Assembly (NCBI RefSeq): GCF_003334355.1
Contig: NZ_QOWP01000004.1
DNA length: 64,000 nucleotides
Direction: 5' to 3' (one strand)
Source of the DNA: Escherichia coli
GTDB taxonomy: Bacteria; Pseudomonadota; Gammaproteobacteria; Enterobacterales; Enterobacteriaceae
Shown: piece by piece, positions 24,297-50,309 of the stretch
Position numbering within the stretch: the stretch's first letter is position 1
How the letters are laid out: each line of letters opens with the position of its first letter
Notes under the pieces: generated by a model
The model's database searches: none
The model's input: the letters and a program-made list of their open reading frames with translations, nothing else
Told to the model about the DNA's origin: nothing
Translations under genes and position numbers: made by a program

Positions 24297-25592
<1,296 letters not shown>

Positions 25593-25738
25593 AACTATCA
25601 GCCAGGTCATTATCGCCTGGCTGATTTTTAGCTTACTGTAAATTATCTCATTTATTACATACATTAGCTTACAATCGCTTTAAATATGACAGCATAACCT
25701 TTACATAATTTAGTTCCAGAAAACAATCATTCGGAAAA

Positions 25739-27214
25739 ATGATTCAGTCAACACGTATTTCCATGGGGTTATTCTTTAAATATTTTTTATCGTTAACGAA
25801 AATTGATCTTGGTCAAAACTATATATCTCTGCCATCAATAAAATCCAGCACTCACATTGCTCTCCTTTTTATGGTTTCTATGGGTACACAAAAATTAAAA
25901 GCTCAAAGCTTTTTTATTTTCAGTTTATTGCTGACGTTAATTTTATTTTGCATTACTACCTTATATAACGAAAACACAAATGTAAAACTCATCCCACAGA
26001 TGAATTACCTGATGGTTGTTGTGGCTTTGTTTTTCCTTAACGCCGTCATTTTTCTTTTCATGTTAATGAAATATTTCACTAACAAACAAATTTTACCAAC
26101 ACTCATTTTAAGCCTTGCATTTTTAAGTGGCCTTATCTATTTAGTTGAAACCATTGTAATTATCCATAAACCAATTAACGGCAGTACACTGATCCAGACA
26201 AAGTCGAATGATGTTTCTATTTTCTATATTTTCCGCCAACTCAGTTTTATTTGTTTAACCTCGCTGGCACTCTTTTGTTATGGAAAAGACAACATCCTTG
26301 ACAACAATAAGAAAAAAACGGGAATCCTGTTGCTGGCGCTGATTCCTTTTTTAGTTTTTCCCCTTCTGGCACACAATCTGAGCAGTTATAACGCTGACTA
26401 TTCTTTGTATGTCGTCGACTACTGTCCTGACAACCATACTGCGACCTGGGGAATCAACTATACAAAAATATTGGTTTGTCTGTGGGCATTTTTACTGTTC
26501 TTTATTATCATGCGTACACGATTAGCCAGCGAACTATGGCCATTAATAGCATTATTATGTCTGGCATCGCTATGCTGCAACTTACTTCTACTGACTCTGG
26601 ATGAGTATAATTACACCATCTGGTACATCAGTCGCGGGATTGAAGTCTCCAGTAAACTGTTTGTTGTGTCTTTTCTGATTTATAACATTTTTCAGGAACT
26701 GCAACTCTCCAGCAAACTGGCAGTTCATGATGTGCTGACCAATATTTATAATCGGCGCTACTTTTTCAACAGCGTAGAGTCATTATTGTCGCGACCTGTT
26801 GTTAAGGACTTCTGTGTCATGCTGGTTGATATTAATCAGTTCAAACGCATCAATGCCCAATGGGGACATCGTGTGGGTGATAAAGTGCTGGTTTCAATTG
26901 TCGATATTATCCAGCAAAGCATCCGCCCCGATGATATTTTAGCGCGACTGGAGGGTGAGGTGTTTGGCTTGCTATTTACCGAACTCAATAGTGCCCAGGC
27001 AAAAATCATTGCGGAACGTATGCGTAAAAATGTCGAACTCCTGACCGGCTTTAGTAACAGATATGATGTTCCTGAACAAATGACCATCAGTATTGGCACG
27101 GTTTTTTCAACGGGTGACACGCGTAATATCTCGCTTGTCATGACGGAAGCAGATAAAGCCTTACGCGAAGCGAAAAGCGAGGGGGGCAACAAAGTGATTA
27201 TTCATCATATTTAA
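25739..27214 (+). CDS. dgcI: GGDEF-domain membrane protein with degenerate active-site motif (EGEVF)
   Basis: 491 aa; N-terminal multi-TM domain; C-terminal GGDEF fold with DVLTNIYNRRYF but RLEGEVFGLLF in place of GGDEF. Confidence 0.9.
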   Translation: MIQSTRISMGLFFKYFLSLTKIDLGQNYISLPSIKSSTHIALLFMVSMGTQKLKAQSFFIFSLLLTLILFCITTLYNENTNVKLIPQMNYLMVVVALFFLNAVIFLFMLMKYFTNKQILPTLILSLAFLSGLIYLVETIVIIHKPINGSTLIQTKSNDVSIFYIFRQLSFICLTSLALFCYGKDNILDNNKKKTGILLLALIPFLVFPLLAHNLSSYNADYSLYVVDYCPDNHTATWGINYTKILVCLWAFLLFFIIMRTRLASELWPLIALLCLASLCCNLLLLTLDEYNYTIWYISRGIEVSSKLFVVSFLIYNIFQELQLSSKLAVHDVLTNIYNRRYFFNSVESLLSRPVVKDFCVMLVDINQFKRINAQWGHRVGDKVLVSIVDIIQQSIRPDDILARLEGEVFGLLFTELNSAQAKIIAERMRKNVELLTGFSNRYDVPEQMTISIGTVFSTGDTRNISLVMTEADKALREAKSEGGNKVIIHHI

Positions 27215-46902: not shown

Positions 46903-48813
46903 TTACCTGGAGGATGGTATCGCAAGGAAACGAACCGCACGGGCAATGTCACGGGTGCGTGGCGCGGGCGGCAGACTGGCGAGAAACGTCGCGCCGTAAG
47001 GACGCATCACCAGCCGATTGTCACAAATCACCAGCACGCCACGATCGTCGGCGTCGCGAATCAGTCGCCCTACCCCCTGTTTGAGAGTAATGACGGCATC
47101 TGGTAGTTGCACTTCATCGAACGGGTCGCCACCGCGCAAACGACAATCTTCCATGCGCGCTTTTAACAGTGGATCATCCGGCGAGGTAAACGGCAATTTG
47201 TCGATAATTACCAATGACAATGTATCGCCACGCACGTCCACCCCTTCCCAGAAACTACTGGTTGCCACAAGAAGCGCATTACCGGCACTGACAAACTGCT
47301 GCAACAGTTGGCCTTTACTGGTTTCCCCCTGCAACAAAACGGGAAGCGTCATGGTAGCGCGGAACTGCTCGGCCAGATCGCGCATCATGGCGTGCGAGGT
47401 ACAAAGCATAAAACAACGACCGTTGTTAGCTTCGATGATCGGTCGCAGCATTGCCGCTAACTGGCGAGCAGAACCTGGCTGGTTGGTTTGCGGCAGATTG
47501 CGCGGCACACAGAGTAACGCCTGGCGGCTGTAATCAAACGGGCTTGGCAATAGCAACGACTCCGCCTGTTCTATCCCAAGCCGCGAGGTGAAATGATGCA
47601 GATCGTCGTTCACCGACAGCGTTGCTGAGGTGAAGATCCAGCTACCGGGCTTTTGCGCCATTAACTCTTTGAATTTATCCGCCACGCTGAGCGGCGTGAG
47701 AGCCAGAGTAAAATGGCGCGAAGTGCATTCGTACCAGTAGCTGTAGCCCGGCTGATTGATCTCTTTTAGCCGCTTCAGCCGTGTGCGATACAACGTGGCG
47801 CGCTCAAATGCCGCATCCAGCAAGGCGGAACGCCCCAGTGACAGTTTTGCCACGTCATAACAAAGTTCCAGGGTGTCATCGAGCAGTAAAAATGCCCGCT
47901 GAATTTGCGGATTAGCTAACAGCTCACGCAGGTTACCGCGATAACCTGGCTCACCGAGTTGCAGACGAAAATCCTGCGCACTCTGGGCAAGACGATCAGC
48001 GCACTTTTGTAACTGCTGGGTGTCTTTTAATTCGGTGCGGTAGGCGATGGTGATGTCTTTTGCCAGGTCGAGCAGTTGTCGACTGGAGAGTGACTGACCA
48101 AAATACTGGCTGGCAATGTCCGGTAGCTGGTGGGCTTCGTCGAAGATCATGACGTCCGCTTCCGGGATCAGTTCGCCAAATCCACTCTCTTTAACCACCA
48201 TATCCGCCAGAAAGAGATGATGGTTTACCACCACCACATCGGCGTCCATCGCTTTTTTACGTGCTTTGACCACAAAGCAATCTTTATACATCGGGCAGTC
48301 GCTGCCAAGACAGTTGTCGTTGGTGCTGGTGACCAGCGGCCACGCCTGTGAATCTTCCGCCACGCTGACGCAGGTGCTGATATCACCATCGACTGTTTGA
48401 TTAGACCAGGAGCGCAGCAGGATCACATCGCTTAAGATTTGTACCGGCAGATCGCCCCCCGCCAGCGCCTGCTGTTCGAGACGTTCGAGGCAGAGGTAGT
48501 TTGAGCGCCCTTTCAGCAGCGCCACGTTGCCCGTATATTTCAATGCCTTTGAGACTGTTGGCAAATCGCGGCTGTAGAGCTGATCCTGCAACGCTTTTGA
48601 GCCGGTCGAGATAATGACTTTCTTTTTCGCCCGCAGCGCAGGAGCCAGGTAAGCGTAGGTTTTGCCCGTACCGGTTCCTGCTTCCACCACCAGCGGCTGG
48701 CCTTTTTCTATCGCCTGGGTGACGGCTACCGCCATCTGTCGCTGTGGTTCTCGCGGCTTAAAGCCTGGTATCGCTTTCGCCAGCTGACCGTCTGGTGCAA
48801 AATCGTCCGTCAC
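46903..48813 (-). CDS. yoaA: DinG-family ATP-dependent helicase YoaA
   Basis: 636 aa; Walker A AGTGTGKT and DEAH-like box FDEAH. Confidence 0.93.
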   Translation of the reverse strand: MTDDFAPDGQLAKAIPGFKPREPQRQMAVAVTQAIEKGQPLVVEAGTGTGKTYAYLAPALRAKKKVIISTGSKALQDQLYSRDLPTVSKALKYTGNVALLKGRSNYLCLERLEQQALAGGDLPVQILSDVILLRSWSNQTVDGDISTCVSVAEDSQAWPLVTSTNDNCLGSDCPMYKDCFVVKARKKAMDADVVVVNHHLFLADMVVKESGFGELIPEADVMIFDEAHQLPDIASQYFGQSLSSRQLLDLAKDITIAYRTELKDTQQLQKCADRLAQSAQDFRLQLGEPGYRGNLRELLANPQIQRAFLLLDDTLELCYDVAKLSLGRSALLDAAFERATLYRTRLKRLKEINQPGYSYWYECTSRHFTLALTPLSVADKFKELMAQKPGSWIFTSATLSVNDDLHHFTSRLGIEQAESLLLPSPFDYSRQALLCVPRNLPQTNQPGSARQLAAMLRPIIEANNGRCFMLCTSHAMMRDLAEQFRATMTLPVLLQGETSKGQLLQQFVSAGNALLVATSSFWEGVDVRGDTLSLVIIDKLPFTSPDDPLLKARMEDCRLRGGDPFDEVQLPDAVITLKQGVGRLIRDADDRGVLVICDNRLVMRPYGATFLASLPPAPRTRDIARAVRFLAIPSSR

Positions 48814-48944
48814 ACTACCCCCTGTTGATTTGAACAGGGATTATGTCAGGATGAGGGCGCTTTCGCCAGTTGAAGTGGTGACGGCGACCTCACATTGTGG
48901 CAGTCTTTGCAGCACGAAAATGGAAGTATAATGAGGACAAAATG

Positions 48945-49289
48945 ATGACTATCGTTCGTATCGATGCTGAAGCCCGCTGGTCTGATGTAGTAATCCACAA
49001 CAACACGCTCTACTACACTGGTGTACCGGAAAACCTCGACGCCGATGCCTTTGAGCAAACCGCCAACACGCTGGCACAGATTGACGCCGTGCTGGAAAAA
49101 CAGGGCAGCAATAAATCGAGCATTCTGGATGCCACCATTTTCCTGGCCGATAAAAACGACTTCGCGGCGATGAATAAAGCGTGGGATGCCTGGGTTGTGG
49201 CGGGTCATGCGCCGGTGCGCTGCACGGTGCAAGCGGGACTGATGAACCCGAAGTATAAAGTTGAAATTAAGATTGTGGCTGCGGTGTAA
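48945..49289 (+). CDS. yoaB: RidA/YjgF-family protein YoaB
   Basis: ORF 48897..49289; ATG 48945 gives 114 aa MTIVRIDAEARW. Confidence 0.88.
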   Translation: MTIVRIDAEARWSDVVIHNNTLYYTGVPENLDADAFEQTANTLAQIDAVLEKQGSNKSSILDATIFLADKNDFAAMNKAWDAWVVAGHAPVRCTVQAGLMNPKYKVEIKIVAAV

Positions 49290-49710
49290 GCTTTATCGAA
49301 GCAAAATAAGTCAGACGATAATTTATCGATAATACTGGTCGGTTTTACATAAATCGACCAGAGATTAAGATATTACTGTTGATGCTCCTGCTAATTCATT
49401 ATTTATTTTTATAATTTCAATTTTAGCTATAAAGCTAACTATATAAATAAACATAACCATGCCGTTGTGTTCGCCCTTCGATTAGCACCTCTGGTTTTCT
49501 TTCTTAGCTGAACAATCTGGTTATAGCGTGCGGACTGACCGTTAATTTTCTCCATCTTACTGGATAACACACCATGAGCTGCTACCTTTAAAACACCTGA
49601 ATGTCAACAGGTTAACTCGTGCCATATCGTTATAATCCCTTTGATATTAGATGCAAATTAAGGTCATATATAGCCTTATCGATAACATGGTTAATTTTAA
49701 GGATAAGAAT

Positions 49711-50010
49711 ATGCCTGCTGTAATAGATAAAGCCCTGGATTTCATTGGTGCCATGGATGTATCAGCGCCAACACCAAGTTCGATGAATGAAAGCACAGCG
49801 AAGGGAATCTTTAAATATTTAAAAGAACTGGGAGTACCCGCGAGTGCCGCTGATATTACGGCGCGAGCTGACCAGGAAGGCTGGAACCCTGGGTTCACGG
49901 AAAAAATGGTTGGATGGGCAAAAAAAATGGAGTCTGGTGAACGCACTGTAATTAAAAATCCTGAATACTTTTCAACATATATGCAGGAAGAACTAAAAGC
50001 ACTGGTCTGA
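49711..50010 (+). CDS. yoaC: DUF1889 protein YoaC
   Basis: ORF 49651..50010; ATG 49711 with aagga RBS gives 99 aa MPAVIDKALDF. Confidence 0.85.
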   Translation: MPAVIDKALDFIGAMDVSAPTPSSMNESTAKGIFKYLKELGVPASAADITARADQEGWNPGFTEKMVGWAKKMESGERTVIKNPEYFSTYMQEELKALV

Positions 50011-50037
50011 GTTTAATTTATATCAGCATAAATGGGT

Positions 50038-50076
50038 CAGGACGCTTTTAATCACATATAAAAAGCGTCCTTTTTC
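50038..50076 (+). terminator. Rho-independent terminator after yoaC
   Basis: aggacgctttt ... aaaagcgtcct inverted repeat followed by TTTTTCT. Confidence 0.7.
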
Positions 50077-50129
50077 TCACAATCAAATAATCATCGGATT
50101 CTATAACGAAATCGATACGGATTAGTGTG

Positions 50130-50309
50130 TTACTCGTCTTCATCCTCAAAACGCGCCACGATTCGCTCGCCGGAGTGGTTGGCACGCAGCTCTTCTGCCA
50201 CCAGCGCGATTGCCTGGCCGCTGCTCATCCCTTGTGCCATCAGTTCCTGGATCCGCTCGACAGCTTTTTGCTGCTGTTCATGGGTGAGTGAAGGTAAACC
50301 TGCAAACAT
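50130..50309 (-). CDS. yoaH: UPF0181 small protein YoaH (59 aa)
   Basis: Minus-strand ATG 50309; C-terminus ...RFEDEDE then TAA at 50132..50130; the ORF track lists only the opposite-strand shadow ORF. Confidence 0.75.

Follow-up and report, generated by a model that had tools for sequence, protein, structure and literature searches.

Between the stop codon of yoaB and the start codon of yoaC the Escherichia coli chromosome carries a long AT-rich spacer which is without annotation in RefSeq, both in K-12 MG1655 and in the other E. coli records listed there. The question which this locus raises is what such a stretch consists of: an initial annotation, made from the sequence, had wavered between an H-NS-bound regulatory region, a leader, and an unannotated small RNA. 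We followed up this question within a window of 64,000 nucleotides of an E. coli chromosome, and by the window we mean the whole of this stretch. The spacer is an ordinary composite intergenic region and no single element.

An 840-bp insertion between yoaB and yoaH

The gap between the two genes measures 421 bp (49290–49710), as the stop codon of yoaB ends at 49289 and the ATG of yoaC stands at 49711. Its GC content of 34.0% compares with 49.2% for the window and falls among the lowest 1.2% of all 421-bp windows. The AT-rich spacer of about 420 bp described by the initial annotation is thus borne out with exact coordinates. Other stretches of the window also drop below 38% GC when measured over 421 bp, namely 25360–26520, 60520–61260 and 63120–63980, and the first of them reaches 30% and is thereby poorer in GC than the yoaB–yoaC spacer. 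The order of the genes at the locus is as follows:

46903–48813, minus strand: yoaA
48945–49289, plus strand: yoaB
49711–50010, plus strand: yoaC, a DUF1889 protein of 99 amino acids in the RefSeq annotation, whose control region is the right part of the spacer
50130–50309, minus strand: yoaH
after yoaH, plus strand: pabB

The spacer is found in 5412 of 5426 complete E. coli genomes, and near as well as distant searches place it at a median of one position per genome. The initial annotation had called it non-coding and had seen only reading frames of fewer than 10 codons. The minus strand refutes the second statement: two of its start-to-stop reading frames have 31 and 43 codons, and one stretch runs for 54 codons without a stop. 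These reading frames are conserved neither between E. coli strains nor across Escherichia species and therefore the label non-coding still holds. In the same way the promoter-like hexamers that had been pointed out are indeed present, with two exact copies of TATAAT (49410 and 49631) and one exact TTGACA on the minus strand (49602), but they are not more frequent than chance would have it. With up to one mismatch allowed, 15 TATAAT-like hexamers compare with 14.4 in shuffles of the same AT-rich sequence and 4 TTGACA-like hexamers with 5.3, and a two-hexamer consensus promoter scan returned 2 sites, fewer than the 3.6 of the shuffles. A consensus terminator scan of the region yielded no site.

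When the locus is compared with that of related genera, the stop codons of yoaB and yoaH are only 0–11 bp apart in Salmonella enterica (L024), Enterobacter (L025), Klebsiella (L027), and a fourth outgroup (L032). In contrast, yoaC and its flanking non-coding DNA are present at this locus in every Escherichia examined, that is in E. coli, E. albertii, E. whittamii, and further lineages. As the two genes abut in the four outgroup loci, we conclude that the DNA between them is an insertion which is seen only in the Escherichia examined. It comprises the spacer, yoaC, and the terminator region between yoaC and yoaH:

49290–50129, without strand: insertion block of 840 bp with 37.5% GC, flanked by the stop codons of yoaB and yoaH, which converge on it
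50039–50071, both directions: bidirectional terminator hairpin (inverted repeat) for yoaC on the plus strand and yoaH on the minus strand, at the right end of the insertion

The arrival of this low-GC DNA would have placed yoaC between the convergent yoaB and yoaH. Concerning its source, homologues of yoaC are found in Buttiauxella, Citrobacter, and Lelliottia in unrelated contexts, and similarity at the DNA level begins only at 49685. Distant searches of plasmids and phages revealed no relative of the spacer on true plasmids or phages, the only matches being mislabelled E. coli chromosomes. In Citrobacter fimbrial genes adjoin yoaC. We also considered a link between yoaC and fimbrial genes, and rejected it, as the genes of Citrobacter and the rare fimbrial operons of E. 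coli share only family-level similarity of 23–28% and are arranged differently.

Near the right end of the insertion published Term-seq data place RNA 3′ ends at 50075/50076 on the plus strand and at 50035 on the minus strand (Adams et al. 2021, PMC7815308). The minus-strand end, that of the yoaH terminator, has a very high score in these data. In addition, a Rho-dependent termination region is listed at 49975 on the minus strand, antisense within yoaC; transcription running on past yoaH thus appears to be ended by Rho inside yoaC. Where E. coli has a terminator region of 119 bp only, the loci L005 and L006 hold ∼429 extra bp between yoaC and yoaH, and some non-coli Escherichia lineages carry there a gene for a pentapeptide-repeat protein of 150 amino acids (L030, 3678–4130, minus strand) with sub-threshold matches to the Alr5209, HetL, and Qnr-type families.

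On the other side of yoaB, the divergent yoaA/yoaB promoter region contains a LexA-type box of the form CTGT-N8-ACAG at 48822–48837 (CTGTTGATTTGAACAG). The intergenic region which holds this box in E. coli is extended by ∼347 bp in the lineage of Escherichia strain SCPM-O-B-8794 (L008, 2735–3204).

The yoaC promoter, its leader, and their regulators

The transcription start site of yoaC has been mapped to position 1892041 of NC_000913.2 in M9 glucose medium with 21 reads, which corresponds to 49595 in the window, and that of yoaB to 48914 with 448 reads (Kim et al. 2012, PMC3415461, Table S1). The start sites used here come from this single dataset with low counts (21 reads for yoaC and 12 for the antisense start treated below), and the conversion of the coordinates was checked against the printed upstream sequences. 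Among the rows listed in the supplements of Cappable-seq and SMRT-Cappable-seq there is no entry for these genes or coordinates. Around the mapped start we distinguish the following features:

49566–49594, plus strand: yoaC core promoter with the extended −10 element TGC-TACCTT at 49580–49588, read from the sequence
49595–49710, plus strand: yoaC 5′ leader of 116 nt, beginning at the mapped start site
49601–49611, plus strand: leader block ATGTCAAYAGG, invariant in the Escherichia alignment
49631–49636, plus strand: perfect TATAAT, unchanged in every lineage except one, 36 nt downstream of the mapped start
49637–49645, plus strand: leader block CCCTTTGAT, invariant in the Escherichia alignment
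49699–49703, plus strand: Shine-Dalgarno sequence AAGGA of yoaC

The promoter of the mapped start has a poor −35 element and was not called by the consensus scan. Within the core promoter the sequence TGCTACCTT is conserved in all Escherichia species examined with the exception of L004. The mapped start leaves the conserved TATAAT at 49631 unexplained unless there is a second promoter, and judged by its sequence this hexamer may be such a promoter with a start near 49643. Transcription of yoaC would therefore begin at 49595 and perhaps also downstream of this TATAAT, and the leader ends in a standard ribosome-binding site.

Two further in-frame ATG codons precede the annotated one, at 49651 (the start of an old annotation of 119 amino acids) and at 49687. 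Both were rejected as start of yoaC, as E. albertii has a deletion of one nucleotide and L008 an ACG codon, and the annotated ATG at 49711 is thus the start of the gene. Buttiauxella, Citrobacter, and Lelliottia also conserve the 26 nt in front of it (49685–49710, GGTTAATTTTAAGGAnAAGAAT), which can be read there as an in-frame extension MVNFKDK. This conservation across genera is that of the ribosome-binding region.

Between Escherichia species the leader is 84–95% identical, and the third codon positions of yoaB, yoaC, and yoaH are ∼67–80% identical (four lineages). Promoter and leader together (49566–49710) are about as conserved as coding DNA. Such a degree of conservation could be explained if the leader were a structured cis-regulatory RNA in which the Shine-Dalgarno sequence and the AUG are paired with CCUUA (49674–49678) and a CAUAU block, forming a translational switch that opens upon a signal, a change of temperature, or the binding of a trans-acting RNA. 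The 26 nt in front of the AUG, kept even in the three other genera, would fit this explanation, and folding of the alignment in fact predicts that helices cover both the Shine-Dalgarno sequence and the AUG, and that a second helix joins two invariant blocks. However, shuffled sequences fold just as well as the leader (z = +0.2), and since none of the predicted pairs varies, the alignment fold gives no evidence of covariation. Rfam has no match to the leader, and there is no premature 3′ end in it among the Term-seq rows listed. What is known of riboswitches and attenuators, an excess of folding, covariation, an Rfam hit, or a 3′ end inside the leader among the rows listed, is not seen here. 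In addition, the conservation fits promoter or operator DNA equally well if the TATAAT at 49631 is a promoter. We therefore regard a structured leader as an unlikely explanation and take the right part of the spacer as promoter and leader of yoaC.

The regulation of this promoter has been approached by genome-wide binding studies. YhaJ ChIP-seq peaks lie upstream of yoaC in both EHEC and UPEC, and yoaC is named among the known YhaJ-regulated genes (Connolly et al. 2019, PMC6765310). In this respect yoaC resembles the other promoters of the YhaJ regulon, for example, yqjF, ybiJ, yhaK, and yhhW. According to ChIP-exo data a second LysR-type factor, YeiE, binds upstream of the RNA polymerase site of yoaC and activates the gene (Gao et al. 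2018). Two further features have to be considered here:

49320–49329, minus strand: H-NS high-affinity nucleation motif TCGATAAATT, perfect match found by sequence scan
49417–49432, minus strand: LysR-type box TTATAGATAAAATTGA in K-12, CFT073, and EHEC, predicted as YhaJ box in SI Tables S3 and S4 of PMC6765310

When placed via the coordinates of CFT073, the centres of the UPEC peaks (2045445 and 2045463) correspond to 49351 and 49369 of the window and thus to the boundary between the hairpin of the yoaB 3′ UTR and the AT-rich filler (both described below). The predicted box is a weak match to the consensus TCA-N7-TGA and carries one substitution in the strain of the window, at 49426. A perfect TCA-N7-TGA is absent from the spacer, and boxes with one mismatch are found only at 49565 and 49588, away from the peak. 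The peak centre lies ∼230–290 bp upstream of either candidate yoaC start, a distance which is far for a classical LysR-type activator with its usual position at −65. In the position of the peak and in the lack of a perfect box yoaC differs from the promoters of the YhaJ regulon.

Concerning H-NS, the identity of the nucleation motif was taken from PMC7145609. The match to TCGATAAATT is the only one without mismatch in the 64-kb window. The spacer thus shows two properties of H-NS targets: it is an AT-rich insertion relative to the four outgroup loci and it contains a high-affinity nucleation motif. Horizontally acquired AT-rich DNA that is silenced by H-NS and counter-silenced by a specific regulator is a known class. 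Like members of this class the insert is poor in GC, contains a nucleation motif without mismatch, and has stray promoters in either direction. In contrast to typical members it has only 840 bp with one small gene. Binding of H-NS to the spacer is plausible on these grounds. H-NS would then coat the inserted AT-rich DNA and keep both yoaC and the stray antisense promoter low, and YhaJ together with YeiE would relieve or override this silencing. A more far-reaching model would combine both aspects: the leader would be a translational control element that has not been described before and YhaJ would relieve H-NS silencing over a long range, bound ∼250 bp upstream at the nucleation motif. To this combination we give a rather low probability.

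The end of the yoaB message and an antisense start

The left part of the spacer belongs to yoaB and contains three features:

49290–49365, plus strand: yoaB 3′ UTR of 76 nt, ending at a 3′ end mapped by Term-seq
49335–49361, plus strand: stem–loop closing the yoaB message, an inverted repeat with a stem of 11 bp and a loop of 5 nt
49322–49361, minus strand: weak antisense promoter with start site at 49322 and the −10 element TATTAT, read from the sequence as the reverse complement of 49329–49334

A plus-strand RNA 3′ end at 1893787 of U00096.3, which is 49365 in the window, is contained in the lists of two growth conditions and is classed there as orphan (Adams et al. 2021, PMC7815308, supplementary file 1). 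It is so classed only because it is located more than 50 nt past the stop codon of yoaB. The UTR folds with −21.4 kcal/mol and is thereby considerably more stable than shuffled sequence (z = −4.6). Its stem–loop, with a folding energy of −14.4 kcal/mol, is kept in every Escherichia species examined, and is weakened to a stem of 6 bp with −6.1 kcal/mol in L008. In the seven Escherichia sequences 98% of the stem positions are paired, and compensatory changes occur in two of seven pairs; as only seven sequences were compared the statistics are modest, and 17–19 of 500 shuffles scored as high. Downstream of the stem the mapped 3′ end follows after 4 nt. The published mapping of this end and the compensatory changes show that it is the stem–loop which determines where the yoaB message ends.

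Directly behind the stem stands AGAUUAAGAU, which contains no U-tract as an intrinsic terminator would have, and the terminator scan was silent at this site. The stem–loop would accordingly set the end of the message in one of two ways, by itself terminating transcription as a non-canonical terminator or by protecting the 3′ end from further exonuclease trimming after termination downstream. Hairpins which stop the 3′ trimming of Rho-terminated RNAs are discussed in PMC7815308. The yoaB stem–loop resembles these end-defining structures, since it is stable, has compensatory changes, and has the mapped 3′ end 4 nt downstream. It differs from the processed Rho-terminated messages in that the nearby listed Rho region is on the other strand.

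On the minus strand a transcription start site with 12 reads has been mapped to 1891768 of NC_000913.2, corresponding to 49322, and was assigned to yoaA with a UTR of 509 nt (Kim et al. 2012, PMC3415461, Table S1). The transcript is directed into the 3′ UTR of yoaB and into yoaB itself. The start overlaps the H-NS motif and is covered by the YhaJ peak. Thus, the region around the boundary of UTR and filler gathers the peak centre of YhaJ, the predicted LysR-type box, the H-NS motif, and the antisense start.

One might suppose that a functional antisense RNA runs from 49322 through yoaB towards yoaA and regulates one of these two genes under the control of YhaJ. Its start site has a well-placed −10 element, TATTAT, and the peak of YhaJ (centre 49351–49369) is located over this promoter and not over the core promoter of yoaC. 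On the contrary, the 12 reads of the antisense start are few compared with the 448 of yoaB, and AT-rich DNA gives rise to stray promoters at about this rate. Of the five other Escherichia lineages compared, only L004 retains the −10 element. From 1893787 to 1894457 the listed Term-seq rows give no 3′ end on the minus strand; this range stops short of yoaB and is uninformative on an antisense product. Altogether we consider a functional antisense RNA to be improbable, and we read the start at 49322 as a stray promoter in AT-rich DNA. It is similar to the pervasive antisense starts in AT-rich intergenic DNA in its low count, in its good −10 and poor −35 elements, and in being kept only in E. coli and its close relative L004. 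Unlike these it coincides with the ChIP peak of a transcription factor, which leaves room for a regulated role.

This weak antisense start is the only additional transcript signal in the spacer. An unannotated small RNA, one of the possibilities of the initial annotation, is not supported: the sole plus-strand 3′ end listed in the spacer is that of yoaB, the leader shows no excess of folding, and Rfam searches gave no match, with only chance-level hits (E of at least 2.5) to the spacer at a permissive threshold. A 3′ end of its own, which a small RNA would have, does not occur between 49365 and 50035 among the Term-seq rows listed. A regulatory region or leader, proposed as well, is supported by the yoaC start at 49595, the ChIP data for YhaJ and YeiE, and the conservation of the promoter and leader block. 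That the left 76 nt are the 3′ UTR of yoaB and that the spacer is part of an insertion seen only in the Escherichia examined had escaped notice.

The variable filler and the composite spacer

The left and right parts of the spacer are separated by a segment of another character:

49366–49565, without strand: AT-rich filler, fast-evolving and varying in content by lineage

Between Escherichia species the filler is ∼50–66% identical with many gaps. Within E. coli the identity amounts to 90–99% and the filler is more polymorphic than its flanks. It has a length of ∼200–240 bp in nearly all E. coli, is replaced by a different filler in E. albertii (L007), and is reduced to ∼11 bp in Escherichia sp. 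MOD1-EC7003 (L004); two E. coli genomes have a similarly short spacer. A comparison of strains for insertions and deletions, which had been proposed as a check, thus reveals that the filler has been deleted, replaced, or split in other lineages. A distant search of E. coli genomes detected no paralogue of it.

Several of these variants deserve mention. In about 10 complete E. coli genomes a spacer of the L004 type is split by an IS1 and a seven-gene chaperone–usher fimbrial operon. An example is E. coli LHM10-1 (L035, NZ_CP037903.1, 2119–10527). The usher gene of the operon is frameshifted. The split leaves a piece of 95 nt next to yoaB and a piece of 164 nt next to yoaC. In E. coli D72 (L003, 4081–4848) an IS1A follows position 49369, and 49370–49797 are lost including the start of yoaC. 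Furthermore, strain PT62 carries mcr-1 between yoaB and yoaC, inserted by means of Tn6330 together with an IS1 (PMC9045152).

The short spacer of MOD1-EC7003 (L004, 3730–4000) is only 53–77% identical to that of E. coli, while the third codon positions of the flanking genes are ∼92% identical. Its leader allele, with 77% identity over 49595–49672, is more diverged than the leader of E. albertii. A regulatory allele that diverged long ago, or else a recombination event, would explain this. In an assembly labelled E. coli (2020CK-00188, L034, 1–2036) a spacer of this type with 261 bp is found, with a gene of the SMI1/KNR4 family replacing yoaA before yoaB and a hypothetical gene in the place of yoaH after yoaC.

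Given the two minus-strand reading frames of 31 and 43 codons, it could be argued that the spacer is a decayed gene or a gene for a small protein, for example, the reading frame of 43 codons at 49439–49570. The 43-residue product has a faint match to the YciY family (17 bits, E = 0.005) that stays below the cutoff of 30 bits. The reading frame is truncated in CFT073, has scattered replacements between strains, and is absent in other Escherichia species; the region is rich in insertions and deletions, and there is no match on plasmids or phages. We thus consider a coding origin of the spacer to be very improbable. That the spacer derives from a mobile element, as its scar or as a miniature copy bounded by the two identical 10-nt palindromes TTATCGATAA (49323 and 49676, 343 bp apart), at a locus which attracts IS1 and Tn6330 insertions, is hardly credible: every genome has just a single copy, distant searching uncovered no paralogue, other Escherichia species have kept neither palindrome, and true plasmids and phages hold no match. 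The multiple copies that characterize REP/BIME elements or MITEs are likewise not seen, with a median of one place per genome. A shared operator formed by the two palindromes was rejected for the same lack of conservation in other Escherichia species.

Thus, we suggest with considerable confidence that the spacer is composed of the 3′ UTR of yoaB, an AT-rich filler, and the promoter and leader of yoaC, and that it lies with its regulator sites within an insertion of 840 bp. Its features have already been published in genome-wide studies of K-12 and of pathogenic strains, yet they are absent from the RefSeq annotation. The annotation would gain the yoaB 3′ UTR together with the hairpin that sets its end, the promoter and leader of yoaC, and the binding sites of the regulators. 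A sensitivity phenotype towards boric acid has been reported for yoaC, and knowledge of its control region may therefore help those who study this gene. Beyond this, the locus illustrates on a small scale the precise insertion of a gene with foreign composition at the junction of two convergent genes that abut. The inserted gene later came under resident LysR-type regulators, and the leftover filler is still prone to insertions, among them IS elements, a resistance transposon, and a fimbrial operon.
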